A stretch of 64,000 bases of DNA from Clytia hemisphaerica (GCF_902728285.1 NW_027103772.1:185149-249148), one strand, 5' to 3'; positions 4,690-64,000 are shown, numbered from the stretch's first letter. The notes: generated by a model from the sequence alone, not told the origin. Numbers and translations are program-made.

Positions 4690-4800
4690 TCTGCGATTAA
4701 TTAATCTTAAGTGGTCGAGTGGATAAGGCGTTGAGATGGCACATACTGTATGTGAAAGTCGTTTTTGAGAGTTCGAATCCTATACGGTGCGTTGAAGTTT
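4690..4800 (+). ncRNA. tRNA-like or SINE-like segment with a GTTCGAATCC T-loop-like box. No convincing cloverleaf.
   Basis: ggtcgagtggataaggcg ... gagagttcgaatcctatac. B-box-like motif only. Confidence 0.15.
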
Positions 4801-6235: not shown

Positions 6236-6805
6236 TGTGTTTCTCATGATTTTATGCTGTAAAAATGATCTATTTTGGACTTTTGGTCATTTTTCATGAT
6301 GATATAATTGGTGGTTGTCCCTTTTGGATTTTCAAACTTGACAATGAAACTTTCAAACACACAGCCATTGATACACAGTATTTTTTGTGGTGTTATGTAT
6401 GGCTGAAAATGATCCTGTTTTGGACACTGTTATTGTCGTATTCATCATCGCTCGGCTGGCGACCGTTCCTTTTGATTTTTCAAACCCGACACATATCACA
6501 TAACACATATCACTATGAGAATTCAGTAGAGGATACTAAAACACAATTCCTGTGTAAATTTGAACAAGATCGGAGAAATTTTCACAGTGTTATAACTGAA
6601 AATGATATTTTTTGGACTTTGTCGTAATTTCATTGGCTGGGCGATCGTTCCTTTTGAATTTTTCAAACGCGAAACAGGTTTTTTCCAAATATAACACTAT
6701 TTATTACATACACACTATTGAACCATTTTATTTGGTTTATCCTACTCTTCTCCAAGTATTATCCCAGCAGAAAAAATAATGCTTAGCTAAAAACCCGTGG
6801 CTTAA

Positions 6806-7816: not shown

Positions 7817-9951
7817 TTAACGAAATTTTATCCGGACAATCAAATCAACGGCGCATCATTGCTTCGCTATTAGCAAGTTTAGAAAGAAATAAATTTATAA
7901 GAACTTGGAAATATTGACTTCTAAATGTTTAGCTCCAATTTTGAACTTTTTAGTTGAGGATGAGTGGGCGGGGGATGGGCTTGGTTATTTAAGCAAGAAA
8001 GTGCATGTGTAATCACTTAGAAGAGCTAAACTTCCAGCTGGTTTATTTATTCGAACCTTTAGCCGCCGAGAGACGTACCACGTACGTCATATATACAGGC
8101 CGAGAGACGTACCACGTACGTTTTGATACTGGGGTCGTTTCAAAGTTTAATAAAATAAAGACCAGTTTGAATTTTTCTATTCTGTAAAATTTAGCAGACA
8201 GGATAGGGGTGAAGGTTCATTTTTTAAAAATTTTACGGGTCCTGCTTTTATACATCTCGAGATATCGGAACTCAATGTCGGTGTATTTTTCAAATGTCAA
8301 CAAAACGTCGTTTTAGTGGTGGACAGAGGGTGTTTGATGGATTTTTGGACTGAAAAGTCATGTTTATGTCTGGTTTTTTCTTGGTTTCAGTATATAAATA
8401 TCATTATATGAGATAGAGAACCTTTATTGGCAGTTTCTATGTGGTTTGAAGGGGTTTAAGGGGGTATTTCCTGACATACATGCCTATCTCTAGCTCCAAC
8501 AACTCAGGGCTGTTTTGCCTCAGTTTTTCGACTATTCTGGTGTTTTATTGCTTGAATTTACATGATAGAGAGTCTGTTATGATTATTGTAGTAATTTTAC
8601 AGGCTTAGGGTAAGTGCAGGGCCAATTTTAGAGCAACGGGACCACTTATTTTACCTGTTGTGGCCAGAGTGTCGATTTTGGTGGAAAAGTGTGCTTCACC
8701 GAAACTTAGATTCTGAGATGAAATGAGCTTCTTCAGCCCTGAAATTTCACACAATGGTGGCTTATAACATAAACTAAAACAAAATAATTTTTCTGGGACC
8801 AATCTTTACCTTGTACCCACTTTTTTCATTCAATTTGTCAAAAAAAAGAAAAAAAGTGAAAAAATCGTAAACATGGAATTTTTACTGTTTTGATTTGAGG
8901 CTGTGTAGTCAGGTTTAAAAGGGTGATGAGGCGTCTTTTTGGTATTATCTGAAAAAATAGATCCTTAGCTTTTCAAAATGGGTTTACTTTTTACTTAAGC
9001 TTTAGCGGTTCAGATTTTATGACATTTTCCGCGAAACCTCCATTTTCATGAAAAAAACAGCGGCAGCAGCGCGCGCTGTTTTTAAAAACAGCGGTGTCTA
9101 AAGGTTAAGATTATTTCTCATACTCGCTCTGCAATAGATTTATTGCTTTGCTTTCTGATCTGTTCTGATTAGTAGTTTGTGGGCAACGTTCGAACACAAC
9201 TAACTCAACAAGCTCATCTTTCACATCTTTTAATCTCTAAAGCCGGAGCTTCCAGCGCAGCTGGTTTATTGTTCTTTTAATAGCGTTCTAATAATAAATA
9301 AATAAAATTTTATTCGTGCTAGCAAGGACTTCATCTTATAGTCCTGTAGAATTAATTAGAATTGAATTTCTGTCCGACCCGAGTTAGTAGTTTTACCTGT
9401 AACGCCAGTCTTTTGGGCATAGAGGTTTTGGAACAACTAATTAGCAGTCCTAATTAGCAGGCCTCGCAAAAAAGTCTTTAAACCCTATCTTTCGAACTCG
9501 TTATATGCGGTTACTTTCCACGAAAGATTTTTAATAATCTCTCAGTCCATTTAAGGCTTGGTCATAGACAAACTCTTGTTTATTCAACTTATTCACATTG
9601 TTTTTCATAAAAAGCTACTCGGCTTTATGAAGCTTGATTATCAGAGCACCGTTGCCTTTAATTAAAAACAAAATATTGCTGTTTTTCATCTAACACACAA
9701 AATGTAAAGGATAAATGAAAAACATTAACCAACTAATTTGTTCATTAAACTGTCTTTAGGGACGGGCTCAGGAAACCACAAAGACACAAAATCAACCATG
9801 ATACAAAGGATAACAAGGAATGACGATTCAAAATCGAATTTTGATGTATAAATCGTCGCTGTAGAATAAAAAGGCGTTATTTCCATTTTTGCTGTCGACA
9901 TGTTTTCCCGGAATATGGCGCACCGTAGCTAGTCATATTTTTGTATCATGG

Positions 9952-18746: not shown

Positions 18747-19148
18747 TTAATATTCTTGAGATTGAGAATTTTTGCCCTTAGCTTCTTTGGTCTTCTTGGG
18801 AAGCAAGAGAGCGTTGATGTTTGGCAAAACACCACCAGCAGCAATGGTGACTCCACTTAAAAGTTTATTCAATTCTTCGTCATTTCTGACGGCAAGTTGC
18901 AAGTGACGTGGAACAATACGACGTTTTTTGTTATCACGGGCTGCATTTCCAGCCAATTCAAGAATTTCAGCAGACAAATATTCTAAAACTGCAGCCAGAT
19001 AAACAGGTGCTCCGCTTCCAACTCGAGAGGCGTAATGTCCTTTACGTAAAAATCTGTGAATTCTTCCAACAGGAAATTGTAGGCCAGCTCTTGATGATCG
19101 CGATTTTGCTTTAGTTTTACTTTTTCCTCCTTTACCGCGTCCACTCAT
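18747..19148 (-). CDS. H2AX: Histone H2A, H2A.X-type variant. 133 aa, C-terminal SQEY.
   Basis: [40 protein letters not shown]...[32 protein letters not shown]...[19 protein letters not shown]. The ATG is at 19146-19148 on the minus strand. The listed ORF's upstream extension is not conserved histone sequence. Confidence 0.9.
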
Positions 19149-19236
19149 TTTGACTATTTTATTTTTAGCTGCGCTGAAATAGTAAATATCAAAATGCTTG
19201 AAATCAGATAAAAAAATTATGATATTTGATAACTTA

Positions 19237-19676
19237 CTCTTAGGTTCCAAATAAACGCCCCACCCTGCGTGTTAATTTTTCGAAAATTTTCCAACCCTGT
19301 CGGACCTCATTAGGACCCGCCGTTTATTAATTTTTAAGAATATTTTCAGCTGTCAAAGAGAAGGCCCCTTATTTTGCTCTAAATAACCTGATTTTAGCCT
19401 ATATCTACCTTATTTTGGGTTTTCAAAAGTACAATTTCCAACCCAAGGCAATTATGCCCCCTTGTTTACTAAAATCTTGAAAGATCAACCCACCCCCCCC
19501 CCCCCCAGTTGTATTGAAGTTTTTACAAGATGCTCACATAATTGGTTATTCAAAACAATGAGATGACGCGTTCTTTAGAAAAATTTTTGTTTGAATAGTT
19601 AACGACCAATCCCATGACAAAAATTCTTGTAAATGTTCAACTTGACCTGTCCCCCTGATTATCTGGAACCTAAGAG
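19237..19676. mobile_element. Stowaway-like MITE with TA TSD and TIR CTCTTAGGTTCCA. It lies about 90 bp upstream of the H2A.X start codon.
   Basis: TA at 19235-19236 and 19677-19678. Inverted termini ctcttaggttcc / ggaacctaagag. The internal sequence is related to 688-967. Confidence 0.65.
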
Positions 19677-23059: not shown

Positions 23060-24830
23060 AAGATTTTCAGATCTCTCTCAGATTATAAAAATCTTTGAGA
23101 AAGTCTTCAGAAAACACATCAATGTCAAACACATGGACGAAAATAACTTTTTCAACCCAAATCAGCATGGCTTTAGAAGTGGAAGATCTTGTCTGAGTCA
23201 GCTCCTTGAACAACATGATCTTATATTAAACTTACTTGACAAAGAGACCAATGTAGATGTTGTTTACTTAGACTTTTCTAAAGCTTTCGATAAAGTGGAT
23301 CATTCAATTGTTCTGTCGAAATTCAAAAGGCTAGGAATAACTGGTAAAATCTATAACTGGATAGAGTCCTTTTTGAGAGACAGGCAACAAACTGTAGTGG
23401 TTAATGGTGTGAAATCAAACAACCAAGAAGTTATCTCAGGTGTACCACAAGGAAGTGTACTTGGACCCCTGATTTTCCTGATACTCATTGGAGACATAGA
23501 TGAGAATGTTATCCAATCTATCGTCAAGTCCTTTGCAGATGACACTCGCACAACCAAGTCAATAAAGAATGCTGAAGATATAAAAATATTGCAACAAGAC
23601 CTTCAGATTTTATATCAATGGACAATCGCAAACAATATGAAATTGAATGATGCAAAATTTGAATTGCTACGTTATGGCTCAAATACAGAAATCAAAAATG
23701 AATCTCACTATACCTCACCATCAGGAGATAAAATTGAAGGAAAGGAATATGTTAAAGACCTGGGAGTTCTTATGTCCAATGATTGTCTATTTAAACATCA
23801 AATTGAATCAATAATTGAAAAAGCCAAAAACATCATTTCTTGGATATTACGTACCTTCACTTCCCGCTCTACACATACCATGATCACTCTCTATAAATCA
23901 CTTGTGATCCCTATACTGGAATATTGCTCAGCGTTATGGAGCCCCAGTACTATTAGTCTTATTCAAAGACTTGAAGAGATCCAGAAATCATTCTTGAAAC
24001 AAATAAAAGGAACACACAATTATTGGGAAAGTCTAAAGAAGCTTAGAATATACTCACTTCAAAGAAGGAGAGAACGCTACAGGATCATATACCGGGTGAC
24101 CCACGAAAAAGTTCGGACGTTTCTCGACGTCTTGAAGCCAAACAAATGTCCCAAAGTGTTTGGAGTTTTACTATTTAGAAAGTAGATATCCTAACTTAAA
24201 ATTTGAGCTATCATTTTTTTAATTTGATCCACAAGTCCCCTAGTTATGAGCTTTTAAACTCAATATTCACTTTTCGGAAAGTGTAAAAAACACGTAAAAA
24301 AGGGGTATCAAATTAGGTATGTTTAGACATTTTTGATATACAGTTTTTGAGAAAATTCTTTGAAAGTGACAATTTTTATTAAAACTAGTCTTGTTTTAAA
24401 CAAAAATTACTTTCAAAGGTGGTTTTGATAATTGTTAATTTCATAAAACTTGTTAACTAAGTCAATTTGTAAGTAATTTTCTAATTGATTGCGAAAATTT
24501 AATACCTGTTTTTACGTGTTTTTCACACTTTCCAAAAAGTGAGTTTTGATTTTAAAAGCTCATAAGTAGAGAACTAGTTGGTCAAACTTAAAAAGTGATA
24601 GCTCAAATTTTAAGTTAGTATATCTACTTTCTAAATACCAAAACTCCAAGCACTTTGGGACATTTGTTCAGCCTCAAGACGTCGAGAAACGTCCGAACTT
24701 TTTCGTGGGTCACCCGGTACACCTGGAAAATATTGGAAAATCTTGTGCCAAATATCAATGATTGCTTCAAATCTAAAGACCATCAGTGTAGACCTAAAGC
24801 TCTAAACCAGCATCTAATAACATGAAAACC
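23060..24830 (+). mobile_element. 5'-truncated CR1/L2-like LINE ORF2 (RT domain). It is interrupted by a TA-flanked foldback element at 24096-24719.
   Basis: ORF 23133-24185 carries HGFRSGRSC, YLDFSKAFDKV, GVPQGSVLGPLIF and FADDT (RT motifs 1-5). After the insert is removed the frame continues as ...RIIY | TWKILENLVPNINDCFKSKDHQ...*. Confidence 0.75.
24096..24719. mobile_element. Foldback TIR element of about 625 bp with arms of roughly 215 and 240 bp at about 90% identity. TA TSD, TIR CCGGGTGACCCACGAAAAAGTTCGGACG.
   Basis: 24096-24300 is the reverse complement of 24480-24719. ta lies on both flanks (cata-TA-ccggg ... cccgg-TA-cacc). Confidence 0.6.
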
Positions 24831-32740: not shown

Positions 32741-33159
32741 ATGTCTCGGCTACGAACAACTGTATCCAAGCTATTAACCCTTGGTGGTTTAACTGTTGCT
32801 TCAGGAAGTACACTTGCATATTATCGATATTCACTTTTGGGAGAAAATGCTGAATGCAGGCCACATGCACCAAATGTAGAATTCAAAGATACAGACACAA
32901 TCGTTTCTGAACAGAAATCTCAAAAACCTTGGGATGATGATTGGGACCGTCGTAAACAAATCCGTAGTAAGAAACTTAAAGAAGACCCACCTATTGTTGT
33001 CCTTGATAAAGACGGTGACTTGAACACTATACCTGCAACACCACCAAAGCCTGTGGAACGAAAACCTACCGCTACTAGACACGTCATTTTAGTTCGCCAT
33101 GGTCAATATGAAATGGACCACACTGATAAAGAGAAGAAAATCTTAACTCAACTTGGAAG
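32741..33159 (+). CDS. PGAM5: PGAM5 (mitochondrial Ser/Thr protein phosphatase, PGAM family) exon 1. Holds the N-terminal TM anchor, the WDDDWDRR multimerisation motif and the start of the histidine phosphatase domain (RHVILVRHGQY).
   Basis: MSRLRTTVSKLLTLGGLTVASGS...KPWDDDWDRRKQ...ATRHVILVRHGQYE...ILTQLG. GT donor at 33160. Confidence 0.8.
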
Positions 33160-33294
33160 GTTTGTTTATTTGATTTTTGTAATTTAGTTATTTCCGTAGG
33201 CCTCGTTAGGGTATGTTAAAATCATCTGAAAGTATATTCGGGATGTAAGTTTTTACCAGTGCTGGAAATAAGGAAATTTCATGAATTCATCTTA

Positions 33295-37085: not shown

Positions 37086-38400
37086 AAGCATTGATAATGG
37101 AGTCTTTTAGTCCCGCTACTGAGGTCGATAAATGTTTCATTTCGTGACACACATCTTAGAACTAACTTTTTTTGGTGGAAACTCGCGAATTAGTATATGT
37201 AGATTCCAAAATCAAAAAGTTTCCACGATATTATCGTGCAAGTAACGAGTTGAGAAAGTCAACAAACAGGAAATCTTTGAAGTTATTTTGATTTTTACTT
37301 TTCTTGAGTTTATATGGATACAACAAGACTTTTAATTGCGATGTTATAAAATGTCACTCTCACGGATCCCACTTTCACTGTTTGATTTACTTTGTAGTTC
37401 TATGATGTAAGTATCTACTTGGAGAGTTTTGAAAGTTTTCGTGCTTTTGGAAAACATGCAAAGGGACTTCAACGGGATAAATCCGTTGCACGGTCGTCTC
37501 GAAGTGGGATACGGGCCCGGGGGGGTACTTAGGCAAAATGGGTGCCGGGTATGTGCGAGCCATAAGGGTACCTTTTCTCATTCCTCAAAAGTCTCTCAAA
37601 GGGGTACAAATTCAAAAGTTAGTCTCTGAAAGAGTCCCAAAATCACAAAAATCAAAAATTTCTCTCTCAAAGGGTCACGATTTCCAAGAATTTTGACCAA
37701 AATTTGGTGAAAATCAAACCAAAATTTGGAAAAAATGGACCAAAATTTTTTCTCTCAAAGGGTCGATTTTCGATTTTCGCCTCGGACATACCCGTCACCT
37801 CGCAAACCTAGTACCCCCCCCCCCCCGGGATACGGGATATACAGGTATCAGTAAAAACCGTATTGTTGGGACTCGGCAAGCCTCGCCACCAATACAGTTT
37901 TTACTGACCCTGTATATCCCGTATCCCACCTCGAGAAGACCGTGTAACTAATAGTATTACACCAAAGTCCCAACTTCTCTAGATCAAAATTTATTGGCCT
38001 ATTTGTGGTAAAAAACTGATGGAAAACAGGGAATTTTCCCACAATCTGCATTAATTTATGCAAAATTAAACACCTTTTTGACCACAAATAGGCCCATAAC
38101 TTTTAATCTAGAGAAGTTGGGACTTTGGTGTAACACACTTTTTTGCTCAGTTTGAAGAGCCCTATCAGGTGATATAGGTTTTTTTTTAATTTGAAGACCC
38201 CCCAAAAATCATTACTCGTTACTTGCATTGCACGATAATATCGTGGAAACTTTTTGATTTTGGAGTCTACAGATACTAATTCGTGAGTTTCTATCAAAAA
38301 AAGTTAGTTCTAAGATGTGTGTCACGAAAATTGTTTTCTAGCCACTTTTTTCGATCTCAGCAGCGGGACTATTTTTAAAACATGAAAATTGTGAACAGTA
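37086..38400. mobile_element. Composite of nested MITEs. An outer element with roughly 80-bp TIRs (37086-37260 / 38215-38400) contains a hAT-like MITE at 37528-37826 and two further palindromic units at 37830-37925 and 37930-38135.
   Basis: ...tcatttcgtgacacacatcttagaactaac at 37130-37170 is the reverse complement of gttagttctaagatgtgtgtcacgaaa at 38290-38330. The inner copy has CCCGGGGGGGTAC...GTACCCCCCCCCCCCGGG termini. Confidence 0.5.
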
Positions 38401-44520: not shown

Positions 44521-47500
44521 ATTTGTTGTCACTTTTGTGTACTGTGTAGAAAATTTTGATCGAGCAATATTTTCTTGGCTCAGTCCGAAAAAATAAAAAA
44601 TTGCTTTTTATCATTGATCCGACTGAAAAATCTTCAAATAGAGGTTTGAAACACCAACACCCCTTTTTATTTTGGAAAACTCAAATATAAGCATTTTTGA
44701 AAGAAACCATTGCTAAGTCGAGTTGAATCTCTTTATTTGTCGCAACCAACATCTTTTAAAGGGACATAACAGTACTTGCGAAATTTGTAAACAAACTGTA
44801 CGCAGCGGATACAAAATCAAAACAAATGTCACATGTCAATATAAAAAATCAAACCGAATATGGCTAATTTTGATTGTTCAATTGTTTTACAAGTTTGTTT
44901 TGGACACGTGATTTTAATTGTTCTCTTTAATGACACGTGGTTCGTGCAATGTTTACATTTTACTACTTTTATGTCCCTTTAAAGCTCAAGTGGGACTCAG
45001 AAAACTTTAAAGTTTTGCGTCTCTTTTAAATATAATGGTATCATCTCAGTATCAATTCAATGGGCGAAAATTCCAATGCAGATTAACCGAAATATCCTTC
45101 CATTGAGTAGAAGGAGACAAAAAAATCTAGTGCATGTGATAGGGGTTTTTGAATAAACTTTGTATTTAAGATTCTGCCTTTAGGATTGAAAGGTATAGAA
45201 AATAATATTGTATCATGGTTTGAAAGCTTGTCTTATCCATTTACAATTAAACAGCCAATACATTATCAGGTATCCATTTCAAGTGTTTTATTCATTTATA
45301 TTCTATTCATAGTCCATGGTATTGGTCTTGCAGATTCTAAGCACCGCCTTTAGTGTTACTTAATACTTTTCTTACTTAGGCCTTAAAGACATTAGCTGCT
45401 GTTTATGTCAACATTGATAGCAATATGGTGTTCAAAACTGTTACTGGAGAATTTCAAACTTTACTGAAACAAAAGGAATCGCACTAGTTTTTCGCAAATT
45501 ACTTACTTTGCCACTTTGGTTTTCCATTTTGCAACCTGGGTCGATTTGGTTGAGAAGTTGATGGTACAGGGATGTATAGAAGAAGTTTGTCACCAATTTT
45601 AACCAATTAGGTACTCTGCACCTGGTGAACTTTTAGGTGATGTAACCCCTCGCAGGCCCGGTGGAACTCCCGCCTCACTGGAAAATCTGCCCAAAATATT
45701 GTCCTCGATGGGAAAAATACCACACTGAGAAATTGACTTTGATTTCATCACCAATCAATGTAAAAAATTACACTCTGAAACCCTTCCTGCCTATTGGATT
45801 TTTTGAGCTTGGAACAATAGAACTGCTATCCCCACTAGGATTTCATAAGAAAATTCTACACGATATAATTTCCGCGGTGGAAAAAGCTTCCATCTGGGAC
45901 TCTGAGACAGGGGTGAAATACATTTCTAATCATAAGACTATCACTTCACATTCTGGATATCTTTGGTTCACTGCTGGGAAGCATCCCGCAGGTTTTCAAA
46001 TCAATGAAATATTTTGTAGTAAAGTGTTGATTACATTAGTGGCTTAATGAACAAAAGAAGTGATTATCGACCTATTGAGCAAGTATACTAGGAATCATTA
46101 GTAAGCTTCTAAACTATTTTGAAAAATAAAAATTACACACAAGTTTTGGTTTGAAAAGAAATGAATATTGCTTCTGAACTTAACATACTGTAGTTCTGGC
46201 AACATTTTATTAAAAAGAAGAATTAACATTATTTTCGGTGTATATTGGACGATGCAGATCCTTTTCATCGTCTAAGTATATGGTGTTATTTTTGTGTACT
46301 TCTTTAAAAATCTAGTTGTATAAGTTGTTGTTTGTCGATGTTGTTAATTGATGTTGTGTTGCTTTCAAGGATAAACCAATGGGCGCGGTAAGCGTTCTTA
46401 CTATTTTATTTTTGCTGTAGAATGATCAAATTTGATGATTTATTTTGATGGATTTAGAAAAATGATATAATGATAAAACTTGTGTTTACTATACCAAGTG
46501 GTTGCATGTTTCCTCTGTTTAAAACCTACCGGACACAGTCCAGGCACATACAGAGACAGAGTTTGACGTTTATTTAATGCCTTCAGTGTTATATCTTCAA
46601 CTGATTGACCTTGTCGCGGTATATAAGTACTGCTTCATGAGGTTACTCAAGAAAAGTTACGACCAGAACATAATACGCAGTAATTTTCAAATTTAGCACA
46701 CGTTTTTTTATAAGAACAAACTATACAAGAATACAAGAACATAAGGCTTCGAAGGCCAATATGTTATTAAGAACAAGTTAAGAACATTTTAAGGCTTTTG
46801 GGACTCTAAAACACCCAATTTCTTAGAAAAACACACAAAAATACCCACAAAGTGACGAAAATAAGAACATGTTATTACGAAAATTTTTAGGCTTAAATCT
46901 GAAAAAGTTATAAACATCCGAAGGCTTCAAAAATTTTGGATGGTCTTATAAAAAAACGTGTACTGGTACCTAGAATCGATTATTGCTGATTTTTCAATAA
47001 ACCACTCAATTATATACGCATTCGCGACTTATAAGCGCAAGATTGTCATAAGATCTAATTTTTGTTCCGACATGTCAGCCAGAAGTTTGTCTATTATTTG
47101 ATCTGAAAGTAAACATCGGTGGCTTCTGATCTAAAGTCTATGCTTTTACAAAGGTTTAATATTATTTTCTAACGAGCATTTTTAATAGAAAATTGTTAAG
47201 ACGATGCAATAATCTGTCTGTCCTAAACGGTTTCTATCGCTCCCAAAAATGGCTGAATCTCAAATATGCTTAACAAAAGTTGCCATAAAGTCATTTAGCA
47301 AACCGCAAATATAGATTTATAAAAGCCCAAAGGGCTCGAAGGCATACTTTTGCTGAAAAGTGTGCCATGGTTAGGTAGCAAATCTTACCTAGGTCACGTG
47401 ACATTCTGACATTACAATAGAATTTCAGCGCTTGACCAATCAGACGCTTTGCGGGTTTTCGAAAACAATAGCAACAATACTTTTTCCGATATTCACTTTT

Positions 47501-51986: not shown

Positions 51987-52275
51987 CAGCTGGCACACAA
52001 CGTTGTTGCAACATTCATCTAACGTTAAATGGACATTGTGTACATTAAATTGACGTTGAAAAAACGTTGTGTGCCAGCTGGGTTAGACGATTAAAGGTTT
52101 TGTGGATACAATACTCTTCAGGTTTAGGTCGACTAAAATCAAGTCTTTTACAATTTTTCAGAGTGTGACGGATCTTACTGATAATGTGGAACTAATCTTG
52201 TACACCGAGCCACTTGCACCCTTATTTTTCCACTTATCCACGCGTGATACAATTGTGAGCAATATCAGAATTAGT
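51987..52275. mobile_element. Short repeat family with a terminal palindrome CAGCTGGCACACAACGTTG. A second copy is at 58911-59120.
   Basis: cagctggcacacaacgttgttgcaacg...caacgttgtgtgccagctgg. Both copies share the tail cgtgataca(at/ac)..tgagc..tatcagaat. Confidence 0.5.
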
Positions 52276-55200
52276 TAGTATGTGTTTAAATTCTAATTTG
52301 TACTGATATACTAGCCTAGAAATCTAAGCCAGATTGATTCAGTCACTCATTAAAATCTGATGGTAATTTGTGACTGAACATCAGTTTTTCAAGGCAAACT
52401 TTAAATTCCGTACATCATAAAAATCACCATAAAAGCACCGATAACGCTATATTGTGTTCAGCCGTATCTTGGCCTTGTAAAGACTGGCTTGGTTAACCAG
52501 GCTACTGATATACTTCGTAGCGAAGCTTTCTGGATTTCACAATGACTTGTTCGATTGACAATTTCAATTTTTTTATTTTAACTATTTTCCATGTGCCAAA
52601 AAAATTTATCCTGAAACTTTTAATCTGTCTAGACAGCACATCAGGATATAAGAAATTTAGATATTAAAACATTTGAATTTCGTTTATTTTGGTGTTACGA
52701 AGCAACCATGCAAACTATTCCACAATATACCTAATGTTTGACAAGCTAAATCATGTTTGTTAGTTTGCAAAATGTTTTTGTCCTAACAACTGATCAAATG
52801 TATCATGTTTGTATGTCCCAAGCTAGGAAATTTTCAAATATTTTTTAGAAAATGGAAATTTATTACAATGTTTCAAATTTCTAAATTTGATATGATTCCA
52901 GACTGATACTTTAACAGAATTTTAGCTACTTTGAGTATATGAATGATGTATTAGCTGTCATAATCTTAACATAAATCTCTCCTTTATGCTGATTTGTTTG
53001 GGCTAAACTTGTATTACCATTCAACATTTTCTGATTTGCGATTAAAACAGATTTTAACAGTGTTCTGCACGGCATGGGACTGCCTCACTCAATTTTTGAA
53101 TTTCCATATAAATCCTTTAGTTGATCTCGTATAGGCGAGGTATCTATTCAATGTTTTTGAAAGCGATTTGTAAATGATACCTTGCTGTACTATATGTTAC
53201 ACACGGCTGAAAATTTTTATACAAAAACGGCAACTGTTGTAACGGTTATAAAGAGACCAACGTGATTTTCCAGGGAAGTATAAAATTCAGAATTCTCTGC
53301 TTTGGAATTACAGTGTAGGCTCTATAGCTCAAATAGGCACGGAAACCGGAGAATTTGTTTGAGTAATAAGACATCTGAATTGCAGAGCTATAGAGATTTT
53401 AGTTATAAAAGAGGTTGAGATAGGCTGCTGGCATCCACTAACGGATTCGTGCTCCTTATAGATATACTATACTATACTACCTGGGCTTTTGTAGAGGTCT
53501 GCGATTCAGACTATTAAGGTTGAGACGCCACTAATATGGCAAAGCACTTGCGAAAGTAAATTTTGTTCCCCTTGCTTGTTCCAGTAGCTTCACTGGAATA
53601 TCGTGTCTCAAAGATGTTTGGTAAGCGCATGATTTTTTATCCCAAGATATATAATGGAATAGGGCCCATACCAACCGCAATGATGGGGTTATTTTTTCTT
53701 CCGGTGCAATATATAATCTGAATTTATTGAATGACCAGTTTGGACTAATTAACGACCAAATTAAGAACACCCCCTTCTCATACCAGACCCGGTAGGATTT
53801 TTTGAACCAGTGGAGATATAAAAATGACGGTCTAAGACTGGGGATATTCCCATATTTTTGTGGTGTATAATTTTCCACTGGGGACAATATTTTGGCCAAT
53901 TCTTCCAGTGGGAAGAGTTCCCAGTGGGTCTGTGAGAAGTTGTTGTTTAAGATACAGGGGTGTTTAGAAGTATTGGAATATAAGACATGTCTTTAATAGG
54001 ATCACTATCTCGTCAATTTTGATTGCTCCTCAGTTCTCTGAAATGTGTTGCTTCTTTGCTATATATAAGGTAGAATTATACGTTTTCTGTGTGAAATTTT
54101 GACGGTTGACGAGTACTATTTACATGAATTGCATATTCTTGATTTTCCGGGTTGCATGAAAATTTGAATTTCATATCAGATGTCTCGGTTTCTTATTGTT
54201 ACAGATGTTTGTGCCAAGAATTTCGGTGTTGATTAAAATGCAGAGAATACATTCTTAGAGAATCTTTTTTCAAATAACATTTTGTTGACCTACTAGGTAT
54301 TAAACAGACACCCCTGTCTCGCAGCCCTGGAGAAACTTTTTCCCGATTGGGATAGAAATTCTATCGTTCTCAGGTCAAAAAATCAAGTGGTGATGGTTTT
54401 ATTAAAGTGCATTTTCTTTCCATTGGATTTTGAAATGGGGATAAAAACAGAGTCATATTTCAAGTGGGGTTGAAATTATAGTGTATTTCTCTCACCGGAG
54501 ACGAAATGGCGGCCCGATTTTTCCAGTGGGATAAGGGTCTAAGCGGGTCTGTGACTACGTTCGAGGATAATAAAGAAAAATTTTGTACTTTGTGATCATC
54601 ATTCAAATTTTGAATGATAATTTTCTTGTATAGAAATAAATTATTCAAGGAGCTGAATTTGTCCCACGTGGAGTAAAGATATCTTGAGAAATTTTAGGAA
54701 AAAGTTTAGATAATTTAAATCGTAAACTAAAATTATAAAAACACAGTATGAGACCTATGTTCTATCAGGGAAGAAGGAAAAAGAAAAGAAAACAGTCTAT
54801 ACAAGCTGGAGAGAAGTTTTGAAATGTTACTTTTTAGTTATTGTTTTATGAAAATGAAACTGCTTGTGTGCTTGTTTGATTGAATGATTCGAAATTGATT
54901 ATATGTTGAAATTGTGGAATAATGATATCAAAGAAAAAGGATACCTTAAAATTTATTGCGCTGTATTTTGGGGGGTCTGAATAGAATCTTATCTGGCACC
55001 CAGATAGTGAAATTTTCATCCGATACGCTAAAGCTCTGAAGGTCGGGAAGATTTTGGCCCACTCCTTTAGAGCTTTTACGTCATCGGAATATCAGATAAA
55101 ATCGAATCTAGCACTTTTTGTTTGTTTTCGAGTTTCACATTTTTAGAATTTCGGTGGTAAATGTTACGCCCAACCTAGCGTAGGAAATATATGGCTTGAA

Positions 55201-55429
55201 TTCCTACACAAGGAATATTCACCTCTAGTATACGGCTATTCTCACAAGGTCTACTGTAAATGACTTTACTATAAATGAGACATCAATACAATGATGTTAT
55301 GACTTTCAAAGTATGAAATTGTACTAATCTTTCATCCATGTCCATGCCTATAGCCCTTTTCTTTGACTTCACTCAATCAAGTTACAAATTATTATTAAAT
55401 TTCAGGTACAAAAAAACATAGAAACAAAA

Positions 55430-56370
55430 ATGACAAATCCGACCGGACGCTTACCTGGTGATCGACGCATCTTCACCTACTTACAGAACGCGTACGCGCG
55501 AAAAACACATTGGCTGACACCACTACCATGGAAACCAAACTTTAAATTCTTATTTGACCAATCTTATATGAAAGATATCAAATTTAAACATGCTGTGCAG
55601 TACGATTCGCTTTCCAAAGAAGGAGAAACCTTGAACGCAGGCAATAATTTTACGTACAGTTTACTAAACATGTTATCTCAGCTGGATCTAAGGCTAGCTA
55701 CAATAGAAGGGAACCTGGGCTCAGGTAAAACTAGCCTGATTTATAGATTCTTAAAAGACTGGGTTCGAGTTTCAACAAAACTGAAAAATAGCGGGAAAGT
55801 TTTCTTGCATTGTGATCTAACCAATATTGATGTAGAAAACATGAAGCCGAAACTGGATTTGAATTCCGTTATGGATTTATTCGGATTACCGGGTTACCTT
55901 TATGATGATTTTATGTGGCTAATCGAGAAAAATAGCGATAAAATTATTGTATTAATCGAGACACACAACATAAGGGCATCATCGAGACTTGTTTTCAAAC
56001 TTTTCTATAAAGTATTCCCAACCGGGAAATTCGTTATATTTCACAGACCAGATAAGACAAACTCATACTTAGACGTACCGATCTCACAGGAATATCGTTA
56101 TCTATTACGGCGCCGAGTAAAGTTGAAAATTCAAAACTACGACATCCGACAGACTGTGAATTTAGTAAAGCAGATTTCATCGAATTCTATAATGTTCCAA
56201 AACTTTCGTGACGCTTTATACGAATACTTGTCTTTATCTAGACTGTGTTCCAATCCCTTTATATTGATGGTTGTTCTAAATATTTATAAAGAAACAAAGA
56301 GTATCAAGTTTCTGGAAAACAGGCTATCGCTACTTCGGAAGATCCTTACAGCTGTGTGGCGACGATATGC
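55430..56370 (+). CDS. NACHT/STAND P-loop NTPase (NLR-like) gene, first coding exon. Holds Walker A GNLGSGKTSL and a candidate Walker B IIVLIETHN.
   Basis: ORF 55430-56374. ...ATIEGNLGSGKTSLIYRFL... with NACHT-like downstream blocks (...LCSNPFILMVVLNIYK...). gtaagt donor at 56371. A possible acceptor tttcag lies at 55400 just upstream of the ATG. Confidence 0.65.
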
Positions 56371-56794
56371 GTAAGTTGCTTATATTGGTTGACCAGCAAT
56401 AGCTCCTCTATTGAGGAGGAATAAGAATCGACAAAAATATTCAATCGTAAAGGCTTGGGGAAACGAGATTTGTTTTTCGCGTTGATACAATGCAACTTGC
56501 TCCATCCCACCAACCTGAAACACTTTCTCGTGTCTCCGACCCATTTTTCTTTCTACCAATAAAAGTGAAGTCTCACTTTTGTCCTATGAAACAAAAATGA
56601 AACCATGAGACACACACTTTTTTCTTGTCTTGGTGGGATGGAGCATGTTGCATTGCACCAACGCAAAAAACTTCTCGTGTCCCCAAGCCTTAACCCCACA
56701 AAATCATGACAAAAATATATTCTTGGCACACCCGGCAGAGCATAATATTACAGATTAGTATAGACCCGCTTTTTATCTTTGTTTTGATTTTCAG

Positions 56795-57350
56795 GAATAC
56801 AACAGATCAATACGATGCTGACATCATCCAACATATCGATAGCTTGCTCATCTCTTTCTCCGATGTTGCCATAGAGACATATACAACAAACTGTCACTTA
56901 TCTGAGGATGTTATTTCTGAAAATGAACATTCTATTCTTTTACTGGATTCCGGTCTGTTAATTGAACACCGGCTACCAACGAAAAATACAGACTCAATTG
57001 AACGCGTATACACATTTTTTGATCCGCTGTTACACGAGTACACGTGCGCTTTAAAGTATTCGAGGCAAATTACAGAACAGCCTGATACCATAGAGGAGAT
57101 TGGGAATACATTATTTTCACCTGAATGGAAAGATGTGTGTCTACTAGTAGCTGGTCTATTAGGGAAACATTTTAGTATTCTGATTAAAGAGATAAATTTT
57201 GATTATATGGAGGATTCAGCACTCCATATTTTATCAGATGCTTTGAATCAATGTCAATGTCCGAGACTTTGTTTAAGAGATGTTGATCATATTCCTGTAC
57301 CTCAATCTATCGATTTTTCAGAGATGCCAATAACGGCTTCCACACTTAAA
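56795..57350 (+). CDS. NLR-like gene, second coding exon (NACHT C-terminal / winged-helix region). It is in phase with exon 1 (gc|g = Ala).
   Basis: ttttcag acceptor at 56794. ...EHSILLLDSGLLIEHRLP...VYTFFDPLLHEYTCALKY corresponds to the NACHT F-x-H-x-S-x-QEFLAA motif. Candidate gtaagtgctttaa donors at 57351 and again at 57498; exon end uncertain. Confidence 0.55.
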
Positions 57351-57895
57351 GGTAAGTGCTTTAACCCTTTGCGTTCCATGCCAAAAATACTGATGCCTAG
57401 ATTTATCGTCACCTCTCTCCGTGCCAAAAATACTGATAACGAGGTAACTCACAATTACGTGGTGTTCCAAGTATACCGCGGGTTTCAAAAAACTTTCGTA
57501 AGTGCTTTAATATTAGAAGCATCGCAGCGGTTTACGGAAAATTAGCGGCGCTAGAATTGGAAGCAGCCTTACATCTGTAAAAACCTCCACCACTGCTTAT
57601 TCCGGCCACCAAAGCTAACATCTGTTTTAAAATTTATCCCTCCTCCTAAACTATTCCCTTTGTAGTGACCTTGTGTAGACGATAGGATTATCTAAATACT
57701 ATCAGAAAGTTTTGTAATTTTTCAATTGACTTACCTTTGCTTGGAAAATTGTTATTTAAAATTTCATCTTCCTAGGGTTTTTTCAGTTTTTTACGACATT
57801 AAATCTAGCTGCTGTCCAGTGAAATATAAGACCCCTAAGCTAGAGATGAAAAACGTTTACTCATAACATTTTCATTCAATTTTACAACAATATAG

Positions 57896-58354
57896 GTTTA
57901 CAAACTTTACTTGACTGGTCTCACGAGTCTCAAAACGTTGAAAACCAAAATGGCGGATATCAAAGTAAACGGGACAGTTGGAACACCAAACAAATAAACA
58001 TTCAAAAAACAGCTTTAGAACGTTTCATGATGAAACACCAAAGCCGGCAAGACCTCAACGACAATAAATTATATTCTTCATCCAACACAATGAATTATGA
58101 TATCCGTAACAATAAATCTTCTTGTCAAAACATGTCAATACCTTTGAAACAACGATCAGAATCTTCCACGTCCTGGTATAACAGATATAGTAGTTGTCCA
58201 GATTTTAACCATGCATTTGGTAGTTTGTTGACATTGAATACTTCGTTTGATGTTGACGACTCTGGTGAGGATTTGCTGATTGAACAAAGTTGGGGAAGTC
58301 ATTATCAAGCACATTTGAATAAACAAAAATCGATAGCCAATCTTAATTCTCTTG
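57896..58354 (+). CDS. Tentative NLR-like exon, a Ser/Asn-rich linker. The 5' boundary is unresolved.
   Basis: The frame is open from 57850 to the gtaagt donor at 58355. Its phase links perfectly to the next two exons, but I found no phase-0 acceptor to link it to exon 2. Confidence 0.3.
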
Positions 58355-59215
58355 GTAAGTGTTCACCTCTGTGTTACAGACCCACTGGACCTGGCTGAGG
58401 TCACTGGAAAATGTGGTGAAAATTTCGTCCCCGGTGGGAAAATACCCTGGAATTTTAGCCCCACTGGGAAATTGGCTTTGATTTCATCTACATTCGATAT
58501 TCAATGTTTAAAAATTGCATTCCAAAAGCATCCACACTGGATTTTTTAACCCTGGAACAATAGAATTTCTATCCACATTGGAATTTCAATATGAATATCC
58601 CCACTGAGGAAAAAAGTTCCACCGGGGCTGTGAGATAGGGGTGTAAGTGTGTGCGATAAAATCCGAACTCCAACTCTCTCCCTTAATTCACTATTTTTAT
58701 CCTGATAGTGAAAGGATCACTATTGTATCACGTCCATCCATCCATCAGTAAAATCAAAAAGCTGGTACTAGTGGCTCTGGGCGTCTCTACGAGATTGTGT
58801 CGAGCTTAAATGACCATCGAGCTTATACGGAAATCTGCGCAATAGACTTGTTTTACAGACTGAGTTGAACCCAGTAAAAATAAAATCATCCAAAAAAATC
58901 ACCCCTTACGCAGCTGGCACACAACATTGTTTCAACGTTAATATAACGTTATATGGACGTTGTGAACGTTAGATAAACGTTGAAACAACGTTGTGTATGA
59001 GATGGGTTGAGGAAAATACTCTGCGATCAATCCTGTACCACTTGCAACACTTTTTGACTTTGATGAGGTGGGCGTGATACAACCATGAGCGCTATCAGAA
59101 TAAAAAACGACTGATATCTCACTGGGTTAAATTCGAATCCATTCCTGTGGTCCGCTTTTTGATTCTAATAGCACTATACAATTCGTATAACTTTTAATTA
59201 ATTCACTTTTTCCAG

Positions 59216-59387
59216 GTACTCTCCGACAAAACCAATCCCTTCCATCGAGAACCAATAGTTTCACTGGATCACTATACCAACAAAATGAAAGTGTTCTTGG
59301 ATCTTCATATTCACTTTATTCTTCACTTGATTCTTTATTAAACGGTGGAGAAAAGAAAAATGATTACATCAAAGATCTCAGATTGAA
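59216..59387 (+). CDS. NLR-like gene exon (Ser-rich linker).
   Basis: ttccag acceptor, gtatat donor. (G)TLRQNQSLPSRTNSFTGSLYQQNESVLGSSYSLYSSLDSLLNGGEKKNDYIKDLRLK. Phase is consistent with neighbouring exons (g|gt = Gly; g|aa = Glu). Confidence 0.45.
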
Positions 59388-60139
59388 AGGTATATCATAT
59401 ATTCGATATTTCAAATCTTATTATCAGTAAAAAGTAATTTAGCTCGCATAATTTTCTGATCATCAGGACAAACCTCTTTAAGAGAAGGAGACAAATCTAG
59501 ATTAGATTTAGTTCAACTTCGTTTCCTGTCATGGCGTCCTAAATTAATACAATTTAGAACGCCATGTTCCCTGTGTATTACCAGCTTTTTCTGTGCTTAC
59601 TGATGGCGTCTATCAGTAACCTAAAAATAAAGCCTGGGATACATGAGGACGAGGTTGGATTTAGTTTTGCTTAACCCACCTGGGTTTCAGATAAAACTTA
59701 AAAGTCAGATTTAGAATATAATTTATCGCCGGGTTTCGAAAAATGTAGGACGTGAAAACAAAAAGAGTGCTAAGTCCCAGAGGCAGTTCAAATCTTAAGG
59801 CTCCACTTTTTCTTGCTTAAGAAAGGTTGAAGGTTCCTCTCTAGCCGTCAGCTTTAAACTCTTAGGTATCGGGTATTGGCCTCAGTCGGTATGTGGGTTC
59901 GATCCCCGTTTTTCTAATTGTCGAATGAGTAACTTATAGATTGGGTAAGTTTCTGGGAGCTAAGAGTATGTGTAGCACTCCACTTAAGCATTCGACCTCC
60001 CAGGTCTAGCACAAATAAAAAAGGGAAAGACTTCCTCATTCCCAGCTTCACTAACATCCACGGAATGAATATACTTACTTACTAATTATAGGATCATGCA
60101 TCGGGAATCGAACATACGCGTCCCTCGTCACTTTCTTAG

Positions 60140-60356
60140 AAGATAATCACCTTGAACGTTTATTTCTGATGGACCAACACGAAGAAAACCATTCAAATGC
60201 ACCATTATCAATCTCTTCAAAGCTGGTCAATAAATTCTTGGAAGCAATATCAGAGAGCTTGACAGAATTGACATTGAATTCAAATCTTCTTGGAAGTCAT
60301 TGGATTGACCATTTAGTGGCCATGATTGTGGAGAATTCAAACATCAGTTATTTGAG
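60140..60356 (+). CDS. NLR-like gene exon encoding RI-type leucine-rich repeats.
   Basis: ttcttag acceptor, gtaaga donor. DNHLERLFLMDQHEENHSNAPLSISSKLVNKFLEAISESLTELTLNSNLLGSHWIDHLVAMIVENSNISYL fits LxxLxLxxNxL...LxxxL. Confidence 0.5.
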
Positions 60357-60775
60357 GTAAGATCGAAATCGGCTATTCTAGAAATAGTCTGTACCCCCTA
60401 TGTTGAGGTCCAGAATGGTCTGAAAAATAAAAAATCCAGGGTGGTCTGGTTTTTTGAATGATAAAATCCAGGGTGGTCAGTAAAACGAGGTCGAAAATCC
60501 AGGGTGGTCCAAAGAAATGGGAGAAAGAAATTCAAGGGGTGCCTGAAAAGTTTGAAAAAAATGGTGGGGTCACCTTTAAAAAAAAAGATATCTCCTCAAC
60601 ATAGGGGGTATAAATCATTTCTGGAATAGCCCAATATAGTCTTTCCTCAGTACGGGTGAGTTTCAACAATTTTCTCCAACTTGATAATGGCTGAAATTTT
60701 GAAAACTATTTTTTTCCGAATGTACAATTAACTTTAACTAGCTTTAAGTGCATTCTTTCATATGGAAACCAATCC

Positions 60776-61040
60776 GGGGGGGTACTTAGGAAAATGAGGA
60801 TGCGGTATGTGCCGCCCTTAAGGGCACCTTTTTTGGATTTCCAAAGTCCTGCTAAGGGTCGGAAAAATCAGAAAATTAAATCTCAGTCCCACTAAGGGTC
60901 GAAGAAATAGGAAAATTTCAACTTCTTACCCCTGCCGGAAAGATCAAAATTTGGTCAAAATTTACCGGTAAGGGTCCGAAGGTCGAAAGTTGGGCGGCAA
61001 CCCCCCGTCAGTTCACAACACTAGTACCCCCTTCCTAGGG
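60776..61040. mobile_element. MITE of the GGGGTACT...AGTACCCC family, inside an NLR intron.
   Basis: ccgggggggtacttaggaaaatgagg ... cactagtaccccc. Related to 37528-37826. Confidence 0.5.
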
Positions 61041-61089
61041 ATGGACTTATTTAGATAAATTGAAAATATCTTAACAATTTATTTTTCAG

Positions 61090-61182
61090 TGTGGCAGTGA
61101 CTGACCTTGAACAACTAAATGTAGAAAATGCTTTAAAATTGACCAAAGCTTTTCAAAGAAACACAGCATTGCAACAATTCGA
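61090..61182 (+). CDS. NLR-like gene LRR exon. The gene probably continues beyond 61182.
   Basis: tttttcag acceptor, gtaagt donor. (S)VAVTDLEQLNVENALKLTKAFQRNTALQQF. Phase is consistent with the previous exon (ag|t = Ser). Confidence 0.45.
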
Positions 61183-64000
61183 GTAAGTGTAACATCTAGG
61201 CTGACTTGCCTAACATTCCATAACCTTATGTACACATCTCCAAGGGAACTAAAGTTTTCTAAGTGTATTATTAGTCTAATAATGCTGACATCATTTCAAC
61301 AATTGAGCAAATAGAGTGCAAGCAGAAGTAATTTGTCGATTGATAAAATTTCTGAATTTTTCAAATGTTGTTGAGAACTTATTTTAAGGATTTGATAGGA
61401 TAATTATTTTTCAGTCTACAAACACCAAACGTCTTCCTCATTCGGTACTAGTAAACACGATGTAAAAACAGGAGAACTGTTTTGAAAATCCCAGTATAAG
61501 CGTATAAGAATATGTTCCCCTGGGAACCTGAAAGTTTTCCACAGTTGATTCTAATACATCTCTTTTACCACCATAGGCTGTTCTGTGGCGTACAATCCAT
61601 CGTCGTTCAAACATCTTTGGGATTCTTCGTTGATATCCTTGAAAGAGATTCTCGGATTAGTGTAGTTTTTCTGTAAAATTTCTAATTATTCTACTTCCTT
61701 AAATATCTATTACATGAAAGTTCAGTGCCGTAGCAACTTTTTTCAATAATTTTTTCAACAATGGTTATTTTGCAAAATGCAAAGTTTTTCTTTTTTTAAT
61801 TTGTCATAACTGTCACAAATGAGTGCATTTTCAAGCAATCTAGAGCTCAAATTTTCAAAATCCCCCCCCCCCCCCTCGGGGCAAACCATGGTTGGCTCTC
61901 GCGGTGTCACTAAACTTCAGCCCCCCCCCCCCCAATATGGAAATGCTTCTTACGGCACTGAAGTTGTCTCAATTTAGAAATGAGCGTATGTGCGACCCAA
62001 AATTAAGCTATTAAAATCCGACCCTTACAGCACACAAAAAGTTCAAACCTGACACTTGCAGCTTAAAGAAAATTCAAAATTTTCATTTTTCTTTGTCCGA
62101 AAACATTCGTTTTTCTAACTTTTTCTACTTTTTCTTAGTTGAATTAGGTTGAATAAACCAAAAACAAAATTTCATGGTATTTTGGCTAGGTTTAACAGGG
62201 GTCGTTAGAAACCCACAGCCTTTGTTGCTCTACATATTATAAATTTTTATGGAATTAATTTATTCGTTAAATATACACACTTAAAATATATGAACATAAT
62301 TTATTTACATCAAATATACATATCCATTTTTCTAGATATTTTGAAATTTAAAAGGGAAAGAAATAATTGTCGAATATATTTACCAAGCTCATTGTATATG
62401 GCAATTTGGGAAAACGCTTTTCCCCATAGGCTTTTTCACGGTCCAAAAAGATTATGGGTAACAAAGACCATCGCACTTTAATAACGTCTATCTATTCATC
62501 TGAAATTTTAGAATTTTTGCATATAACCAGGGTTTCTTATAACCAAGGGCTGTTATCTGGAACACCGCCTTCTCAAAGCTCACTGGGACCCCTTCCCTCT
62601 GGAAAAATTGGCCCAAGTATCGTCCCTCGGTGGAGAATTCTCTAAATCTGTCCCTGCTGTAAATAATCAGATAAGCCAATCCTCACTGCAAATTATTGTG
62701 CAATACTTTTCATCCCCACTGAATTTTCTTGCTCAAAAACAATGGAATTCAAATCCCCAGTCATGAGCAAAATGGGAATATCAATCCCCATCGAGTTTTG
62801 ATCTGCTATTTTTACCCTTGCTGGCTGAAAGAGTCTCAACAGGTCTGTAAGAAGGGGGTGTTTTGTACTGGTTTTGTATGCAATCAGTCCTGATAACTGT
62901 CATTTCTCTATAGTGATATATTACACAGGAAAAAAATCATCAAATCTAAAAGTTTGGGAAATGTAAAATCACAAAGCTAAATTCTGGATCCAGAATGGGT
63001 TCTTCCAAAAAATGTCCGTACATTGTCCGGGGGTAGCGAAAAATCATCAAAATTTGTCCGGGGGTAATTTGGGTTGTCTGGGGGTCAATTGATGCTTGTC
63101 CGGGGGGTAAAACCTGTTGTCCGGGGGCCAAATGTCACTCTGTCCGGGGGTAAATCACTGAAAATTGTTATAACCTTCACCCCCCATGTTCAAATTTATT
63201 CTGGAAAAACTCATTACAGGGTTAGGTAACATGGCTTCCCAAACTTGTCTAAGTTTATTTCACAATATGGAAACAATGCTATTAACAATTCTCAACAAAT
63301 AAATTCGACTTTGTGATATTGTAAAGCGCACTATGGGAAATGTCAAATTACCTAAAGTTGAATTACGTTTGATAAATTGTTAAATGTATTTGATCACTTT
63401 GTGAGCATTGGCTCGATAGCTCCCATTCGTTCTGTCATGTACTTGCGCTAAAATGTGAAAATCCAGGCACTGACACAACAGCGGATAGCTGCACTTGAGA
63501 GCTGCGACTCGATATCTTCAAACCTGTCTCACCGTTCCACTGAGCCCATGCGACGTAAGTCCATTTCGAGGCCGTTGTGGGACGCCTCACATTTAGCTTT
63601 GTGTTACACACTGACCGAATACAACGTATACCTTATCGACCCTTATTGGTGTTATCTTTGGGCACGTGGCGTAATAAGGGCCGGCATTAAAAGGGCCAAG
63701 ATTTTGCAAATTTTACCTAAAAGTGGCTTACTTACTTACTTACTATTATTTCTCAATTTAAAGGATTTTAGGTATGATTCGAGAACAAAAGTTGTCCATT
63801 GTTTAACTATCTAAGACCTCATAAAAATCAGTGATTTTGAATGGAATTTTCAACAATTTACTACCGAAACATGACATTTCAATGTAAATTTTAAACACTA
63901 TTTACTAATTTGAAGCGTAAATAGCCATTTTTACAAATTTTAGCGTTATTAACGGCCCTAATTGGCGTGAGGCCAAAATTGGCCTCTGGCGGAAAATAAG

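Follow-up and report, generated by a model that had tools for sequence, protein, structure and literature searches.

A 64,000-nt window of Clytia hemisphaerica DNA (the whole stretch of sequence that was analysed; all coordinates are window positions unless a contig is named) contains on its + strand, at 55430-61676, what is very likely a single functional gene for an 862-amino-acid (aa) protein of a divergent animal NLR kind, i.e., a NACHT-type STAND nucleoside triphosphatase (NTPase). The window was 35% G+C, eukaryotic, and carried spliced genes. Seven coding exons formed one continuous frame, with all splice sites GT-AG and phases compatible throughout. The 862-aa model was letter-for-letter identical to C. 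hemisphaerica XP_066918748.1 (UniRef A0A7M5XG31), which RefSeq labels as an "uncharacterized protein" with no family assigned and which lies on the same 356-kb contig as XP_066918744.1.

Membership in the NACHT-type STAND NTPases of the animal NLR kind was clear at the family level. Seven of the 13 aligned family members matched the Pfam NACHT model (PF05729), the best with an E of 6.6e-12. Searched against the PDB, the family profile matched NLRP3 (3.1e-11), NLRC4 (2.2e-9) and NAIP (1.4e-8), in addition to NLRP14, NLRP2 and NLRP1, and these matches spanned the P-loop and nucleotide-binding domain through the winged-helix signature. Alignment of the family with hhalign to P0013, a metagenomic protein with a Pfam NACHT score of its own of 4.8e-19, gave a probability of 98.6% and an E of 1.2e-15. 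The AlphaFold2 (AF2) model reached a predicted local distance difference test score (pLDDT) of 80-94 across residues 120-480, and the top 22 PDB matches found by Foldseek were all animal NLRs (E 2.5e-10 to 1e-6). Single-sequence AF2 gave a pLDDT of 32. The model showed the NBD-HD1-WHD(-HD2) fold. From N- to C-terminus, the protein is comprised of a leader, a NACHT module at residues ~84-500 (nucleotide-binding domain, helical domain 1, winged-helix domain and helices resembling helical domain 2, HD2), a linker, and a C-terminal region of ~160 aa. Bacterial-defence models in PADLOC gave no match for the window protein.

The principal motifs of the module were located by residue. Walker A (GNLGSGKTS) was intact at residues 94-102, encoded by exon 1 and in agreement with a P-loop earlier placed ~95 aa from the start; its G-x-GK core was invariant in the family. 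The Walker B strand, IIVLIETHN, kept one acidic residue (E176), a Glu in place of Asp as in P0013, and orthologues had TDD, THD, TND or IDD at the site of the Walker B DE pair (D at the second position). The sensor-1 Arg was present (KFVIFHRPD), with Arg found in all exon-1 homologues and Pro in all except the distant homologue P0008; the helical-domain LCSNPF was also present. The exon-2 sequence YTFFDPLLHEYTCALKY, previously read as a NACHT FxHxSxQEFLAA-like block, aligned column for column with NLRP3 FYSFIHMTFQEFFAAMYY in the family-profile alignment, bearing out that reading. In the PDB profile, the family sequence "vYTFFDPLLHEYaCAL" was aligned to NLRP3 "FYSFIHMTFQEFFAAM".

Residues 1-500 were scanned with HMMER against 1.84 billion representative proteins; only 14 matches emerged, nearly all of them exon-sized open reading frames (ORFs) from metagenome or SRA assemblies. 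Profile-based word searches added a few further homologues, and the C-terminal half as query gave linker-exon fragments only. Single-sequence searches gave no match, either from the word-index protein search or from phmmer against the PDB. Fragments of the exon-1 type ended "...W[RK]R.." and those of the exon-2 type "...ST.KG", both coinciding with the exon boundaries of the model. The whole gene was found, in the same order and orientation, on three contigs (L003, L006 and L007); the homologous metagenome contigs are presumed to be hydrozoan. The L003 homologue is 909 aa long and has one private extra intron; the L006 homologue, on an 838-kb contig, is 846 aa. In structured parts the three full loci were 58-69% identical to the window protein, with alignment from the start Met to the last residue. 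The locus on L007 (positions 3320-8978 of that contig) is a second, nearly identical gene copy from the same metagenome sample as L006, with a 1-nt frameshift in exon 1; coverage of the contig was about 5x. This copy may represent an allele or paralogue turned pseudogene, or else a mistake in the assembly.

Coding exon 1 (55430-56370; aa 1-314) is an ORF from the ATG at 55430, and the homologue ORFs share its 'WRRYA' boundary. It encodes the family-specific N-terminal motif, Walker A, the Walker B strand IIVLIET, sensor-1 FHRPD, and the helical domain with LCSNPF. Intron 1 (56371-56794) holds an inverted-repeat miniature inverted-repeat transposable element (MITE). Coding exon 2 (56795-57351; aa 314-500) encodes the winged-helix domain with YTFFDPLLHEYTCAL and the HD2-like helical domain, both modelled by AF2 at pLDDT 80-94. 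Intron 2 (57352-57895) contains the 13-mer GTAAGTGCTTTAA twice, with the 16-nt repeat TGCCAAAAATACTGAT between both copies. The Ser/Asn/Gln-rich linker with its conserved islands is encoded by coding exon 3 (57896-58354; aa 500-653). Intron 3 (58355-59215), which appears specific to the Clytia lineage and has a GGTA direct repeat at its flanks, holds an element here called MITE-A and an inverted-repeat element. Coding exon 4 (59216-59389; aa 653-711) completes the linker and opens the first LxxLxL unit (IKDLRL); it is followed by intron 4 (59390-60091). Coding exon 5 (60092-60356; aa 711-799) encodes units resembling leucine-rich repeats (LRRs; LERLFL, LTELTLNSNLLG...), and coding exon 6 (61090-61182; aa 799-830) a single LRR-like unit; between them, intron 5 (60357-61089) holds two repeat elements. 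Beyond intron 6 (61183-61576), coding exon 7 (61577-61676; aa 830-862 and the stop TAA at 61674-61676) supplies the strongly conserved C-terminus LFCGVQSIVVQTSLGFFVDILERDSRISVVFL.

Exon 7 was located by comparison with a homologous locus and was conserved in three homologous loci, being 79% identical to L006 and L007 (tblastn) and aligning end to end with L003. The original prediction, which ran the gene from 55430 to 61182, had the correct start codon but missed this last exon. A candidate terminal exon from 61414 (...FD LQTPNVFLIRY and a stop) was discarded, the conserved last exon being 61577-61676.

At the 5' end, an acceptor-like tttcag was read from the + strand at 55400-55405, 24 nt 5' of the start codon. 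The frame was open from this acceptor to the ATG, with an in-frame stop at 55364. Similar AG sites also occurred just 5' of the ATG in L006 and L003, the L006 site being a polypyrimidine-AG acceptor (at about 8460-8470 of that contig) 8 nt before the start codon. Spliced-leader trans-splicing is used by hydrozoans. The site at 55400-55405 is a possible candidate for a 5' untranslated region (UTR) intron acceptor or a spliced-leader acceptor.

The protein has no effector domain. Pfam found no DEATH, CARD, PYD, DED, TIR or BIR domain in the protein or its homologues, and tblastx revealed no conserved exon when the 11 kb before the ATG were compared with the 1.2-10 kb preceding the genes on L001, L003, L005, L006 and L007. 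A Met start was at the same position in five homologues. The N-terminal-region profile matched nothing in the PDB, and its alignment to P0013 was confined to the P-loop. Pfam, profile and upstream searches all being empty, the view that no N-terminal effector is recognisable was upheld. Residues 84-103 form strand 1 and the P-loop of the NTPase, so that the stretch ahead of the NTPase core is only ~83 residues long. In NLRs generally, the P-loop is preceded by a leader of about this size (~80 residues), e.g., FISNA in NLRP3. Within residues 1-83 is a motif of ~45 aa, L..Y...W..PLPWK.NFK..DQ.Y, seen in this family only and kept even at 25-29% identity. The AF2 model of the N-terminus had a pLDDT <50 at residues 1-9 and 25-72 and a mean of 48-52 at residues 11-30, and its sole short helix was at residues 12-25. 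The leader is defined by a family-specific motif and not by any demonstrated fold. An earlier suggestion that the first 95 aa could be a novel effector or adaptor domain found no support, since the stretch from residue 84 is already NTPase, the remainder has low pLDDT and a family-only motif, and the profile search of the PDB was empty.

Downstream of the NACHT module, residues 501-712 form a linker of ~210 aa (S 17%, N 11%, Q 8%), in line with the Ser-rich linker foreseen for the downstream exons. From residue 548 on, the AF2 pLDDT of the linker was <30. All orthologues kept islands within it, namely LQTLLDWS, YQSKRxSWN, YxSCP and QSWGxHYQAHLNKQKSxANL. The final ~160 residues were 65-67% identical across three species, and the last 33 were nearly invariant.

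Judged from its motif pattern and structural model, the C-terminal region is probably a short ribonuclease-inhibitor-type (RI-type) LRR with some six units. The LxxLxL motif recurs six times, at residues 704, 731, 767, 795, 826 and 857, with a spacing of 27-36 aa, and LTELTLNSNLLGSHWIDHLVAMIVENSN is a textbook RI-type repeat unit. AF2 placed strands at 769-773, 797-802 and 828-833 on three of the LxxLxL motifs, with helices between them, at pLDDT 50-71. The best E of the C-terminal PDB profile was 0.074, and among the seven weak matches listed, five were RI-like LRR proteins (including LegL7, LRRC34, DRC5 and tropomodulin). The 'RI-type LRRs' of the original prediction were not confirmed: pattern and model favour them, but there was no Pfam or significant profile match. 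Elsewhere in the protein, residues ~445-500 (window ~57190-57351; MEDSALHILSDALNQCQCPRLCLRD...) were weakly paired with the LRR region of NLRP3 in the PDB profile (score 1.0, not significant). If this pairing were real, the repeats would begin immediately behind the NACHT module, with the Ser/Asn-rich stretch inserted into the repeat domain.

Several results weigh against reading the gene as a NACHT-LRR receptor with an immune role, and they bear on different parts of that reading. With regard to the repeats, Pfam found no LRR in the window protein or in the three orthologous C-termini, no PDB profile match of the C-terminus had an E below 0.07, and deletion of the linker brought no gain and no significant match in the PDB profile search. 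Alignment of the C-terminus to the P0013 repeats, described as a true NLR LRR, gave nothing with hhalign, and the internal-repeat hhalign was not significant (E 0.062). The AF2 alignment of the C-terminus was effectively one sequence and its confidence moderate. A disordered linker of 210 aa separates the NACHT module from the C-terminal region, whereas the LRR of a canonical NLR directly follows HD2. These results would fit a NACHT-only 'NLR-like' protein whose last 160 aa form another alpha/beta domain or a partner-binding module, in which case the absence of NACHT+LRR proteins from medusozoans would hold. Such a protein is rather unlikely given the six regularly spaced LxxLxL motifs with the textbook unit LTELTLNSNLLGSHWIDHLVAMIVENSN, the modelled strands on three of them alternating with helices, and weak PDB matches that were mostly to RI-like LRRs. 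With regard to the NTPase, the window protein alone scored only 12.5-13.3 bits against Pfam NACHT (E 0.075-0.13), with a cut-off of 26.7 bits and only the P-loop covered. The lack of a NACHT hit had been named beforehand as grounds for rejection, and formally the protein alone gives that outcome; the family profile and the fold overturned it. The DE pair of the Walker B consensus hhhhD[GA]hDE is absent, with H-N instead, and in the alignment of YTFFDPLLHEYTCAL to NLRP3 YSFIHMTFQEFFAAM most family members have Asp in the column of the winged-helix His. This His contacts ADP in NLRC4 and NLRP3. Because the DE pair and the His are both missing, ATP hydrolysis would be slow or absent, and the motifs suggest that the protein probably binds nucleotide with weak or no hydrolysis.

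An immune role is suggested by family resemblance only, and the best Foldseek matches include the reproductive NLRPs NLRP14, NLRP7 and NLRP2, which are not immune sensors. Together with the altered Walker B and winged-helix residues, this leaves it possible, if on the doubtful side, that the NLR fold here serves a role other than pathogen sensing, as a scaffold or regulator like the oocyte NLRPs (subcortical maternal complex) or NLRC5/CIITA, with the ATPase largely inactive. The gene is also apparently single-copy and conserved, no other named paralogue having been detected and the homologues keeping one structure, and immune NLRs are typically expanded and fast-evolving. However, rank among NLRs in a fold search is uninformative on function, and effector-less, catalytically atypical NLRs also occur among immune regulators. 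Two further explanations concern the gene itself. Introns 1, 3 and 5 each hold one or more repeat elements, the Pfam NACHT score is sub-threshold and exon 1 of L007 is frameshifted, which could be taken as signs of a decaying gene or pseudogene full of transposons, with the RefSeq model an ab initio artefact. This is very improbable, as the 862-codon frame is intact over seven exons with canonical splice sites, intact full-length orthologues at 58-69% identity share the exon boundaries, the C-terminus and linker islands are strongly conserved, and the transposons are all intronic. It is more improbable still that exons 1-2 form a NACHT gene adjacent to a separate linker/LRR-like gene, as might be read from ORF fragments that were always called exon by exon in metagenome assemblies. 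Splice phases are compatible, all exons are joined in the RefSeq model, L003, L006 and L007 carry them collinear, in phase and with short introns, and exon 3 lacks a start codon context of its own, its conserved start GLQTLLDWS taking the G from exon 2. In addition, what are exons 1 and 2 here correspond to a single ORF without interruption in the distant homologue P0008/L002 (26-28% identity). This ORF and the collinear loci answer, as far as is possible without transcripts, the objection raised in advance that exon 1 and the downstream LRR exons might belong to different genes, and the single gene was supported.

The protein would be a nucleotide-bound switch that oligomerises via its NACHT module, with the C-terminal repeats providing autoinhibition or sensing. 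Lacking an effector domain, it might pass on its output by pairing its NACHT module with that of another NLR-like protein, or by way of the N-terminal motif together with the linker motifs.

Comparison of the loci revealed two introns of restricted distribution within the same low-complexity exon. At the intron 3 site (CTTG^GTAC...) the exon was continuous in L003, L006, L007, L011 and P0032; the close relative represented by L009/L010 had the intron and shared its donor. In a crude neighbour-joining tree, L011 fell outside the clade of Clytia, L003 and L006, and this branching favours gain of intron 3 in the Clytia lineage. The private intron of L003 (3918-4197 of that contig) lies ~30 codons upstream of the intron 3 site, has AGGTAA flanks, and was found neither in the close relative of L003, P0032, nor in any of the others. 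These two independent lineage-specific introns, each with short direct-repeat flanks, look like recent gains by insertion or by repair of a staggered break. Neither is simply a MITE. Derivation of intron 3 from one MITE as an 'introner' was rejected: the inverted repeats stop short of the intron ends, and MITE-A, which is missing from the sister contig, carries a separate target-site duplication within a donor that was already there.

MITE-A occupies 58363-58643, inside intron 3, and starts 8-9 nt after the exon-3 donor G. Its terminal inverted repeats, CACCTCTGTGTTACAGACCCACTGG and CACCCCTATCTCACAGCCCCGGTGG, are 25 nt long and imperfect, and a perfect 7-bp target-site duplication, TAAGTGT, brackets the element at 58356-58362 and 58644-58650. 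The consensus of the terminal inverted repeats had eight matches in the window against 0.02 expected, and internal copies were found at 45675-45854 and 54350-54507. Terminal repeats, target-site duplication, small size, lack of an ORF and several copies identify it as a MITE. The sister-species contigs L009 and L010 share the donor and lack MITE-A at this site; the donor was preserved because the TAAGTGT duplication copies the extended 5' splice-site sequence. An element had been reported at this donor previously, but with its start at 58366, 12 bp past the donor, so the element stood and its coordinates did not. Farther into intron 3, a MITE reported at 58911-59120 proved to contain repeats, but not to be one unit: a palindrome of 104 bp at 58905-59008, which recurs at 51987-52086, is nested in a larger inverted-repeat element at 58694-59106.

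Intron 1 carries an inverted-repeat MITE at about 56451-56690, within 56447-56694, with arms of 42 nt (90% complementary) and 33 nt (82%) and TAA on both sides, flanks that resemble a PIF/Harbinger-like 3-bp duplication. Intron 5 carries two elements. The one reported at 60776-61040 was found there, with its first 60 nt copied at 37517-37576 (one partial copy), but its terminal inverted repeats were marginal, scoring 29 against a mean of 16 and a maximum of 30 in shuffles. The other, at 60353-60649 (~297 bp), has 56-nt inverted arms that are 79% complementary. Its left arm begins 4 nt inside exon 5 and spans the donor TGAG|GTAAGA, and its other end is the reverse complement TGAGGAAAGA; no second copy was found within the window. 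This element may have supplied, or may mimic, the exon-5 splice site. Neither it nor the intron 1 MITE had been part of the original prediction. With elements in introns 1, 3 and 5, the general observation of intronic MITEs was correct. The Clytia genome is reported to be 41% repeats, and intronic MITEs are ordinary there. The MITEs are later intron insertions with no part in protein function. Just 3' of the stop codon lies a further inverted-repeat element (61718-61965) with 28-nt arms, 75% complementary, and long C and G homopolymer runs, probably in the 3' UTR or flank. In intron 4, the tRNA B-box-like 13-mer GGTTCGATCCCCG at 59896-59908 may be a decayed tRNA-derived short interspersed element; ARAGORN found no tRNA gene in 55000-62500.

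The 13-mer GTAAGTGCTTTAA occurred exactly twice, at 57352 (the real donor) and at 57498, with none expected in 100 shuffles. The duplication noted earlier was thus present, but its proposed use as an alternative 5' splice site was rejected as a productive event: a donor at the GT of 57498 adds 146 nt and breaks the frame, and all homologues end the exon at '...KG'. The second copy reflects a local micro-duplication within the intron and could serve at most as a cryptic site without productive output.

Other content of the window included an intronless 785-aa ORF at 10620-12977 with the look of a class-C G-protein-coupled receptor (by eye only), a histone H2A gene at 18747-19250 (XP_066918744.1, with an SQEY tail), a non-LTR reverse-transcriptase fragment at 23133-24185, and a first exon at 32741-33187 with a PGAM5-like look (by eye only).

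Prototypical NLRs combining NACHT and LRR have been described as "absent in all medusozoan species", Clytia included (Emery et al., 2021; PMC8260672), and Clytia was credited with 56 NACHT/NB-ARC proteins, 0 with LRR (Hamada et al., 2020; PMC7642931, Table 4). In these studies, which used Pfam domain searches, medusozoan NACHT was paired with DEATH, TIR, HEPN, TPR or WD40 (PMC8260672; PMC7642931). This absence of NACHT+LRR underlies the view of a reduced medusozoan receptor repertoire. A survey using the Pfam curated cut-off would not count the Clytia protein, so counts by threshold can miss at least one conserved NLR-type gene. If the C-terminus is truly an LRR, the protein is a counter-example to complete loss of NACHT+LRR in medusozoans, and the claim needs qualifying. 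Tentatively, and with somewhat less than even confidence, the gene and its homologues may be regarded as a cryptic NACHT-LRR lineage with both domains below threshold, in which medusozoans kept NACHT+LRR, signals would pass via N-terminal or linker motifs without a death-fold, and the same gene records two independent lineage-specific intron gains. Clytia is genetically tractable, making an effector-less NLR with an atypical ATPase site directly testable. In other respects the gene is an ordinary lineage-specific NLR relative.

Like the 'NLR-like' proteins of Hydra and other medusozoans, this is a hydrozoan cytosolic NACHT-domain protein and not a textbook tripartite NLR; unlike them, it has none of the DEATH, TIR, HEPN, TPR or WD40 partners and perhaps includes a cryptic LRR. 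Among proteins that pass Pfam NACHT alone, the nearest is P0013 (4.8e-19), which is 923 aa long and comes from a JGI metagenome contig; its C-terminal region is RI-like, and its own Pfam LRR_6 match was not significant (E 0.86). P0013 and the Clytia protein share Glu as the first Walker B acidic residue (LIWLEGWDEL in P0013). P0013 differs in having a region of ~280 aa before the NTPase, in keeping the DE pair, and in having no disordered insert, its repeats directly following NACHT.

Effector-less, domain-shuffled NLR relatives are common in invertebrates. NACHT-LRR proteins of the effector-less 'NLR-X' type in sponges, corals and fish, reportedly treated by Yuen and colleagues in 2014, are said to resemble the Clytia protein in combining NACHT and C-terminal repeats with no N-terminal death-fold; theirs are reportedly Pfam-detectable for both NACHT and LRR, unlike the Clytia family, which is seen only with its own profile. 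Compared with the vertebrate NLRs NLRC4, NOD2, NLRP3, NAIP and NLRP14, the Clytia protein is without CARD, PYD or BIR, its Walker B is IIVLIETHN where theirs is hhhhDGhDE, and it has Asp at the position of the ADP-contacting winged-helix His. It also has a disordered Ser/Asn-rich insert of ~210 aa between HD2 and the probable repeats, and only about six putative repeat units, undetected by LRR hidden Markov models. Because its score falls below the Pfam curated NACHT cut-off, the Clytia protein is an unrecognised member of the NLR kind, unusual in its loss of the DE pair, its His-to-Asp change and its long disordered insert.

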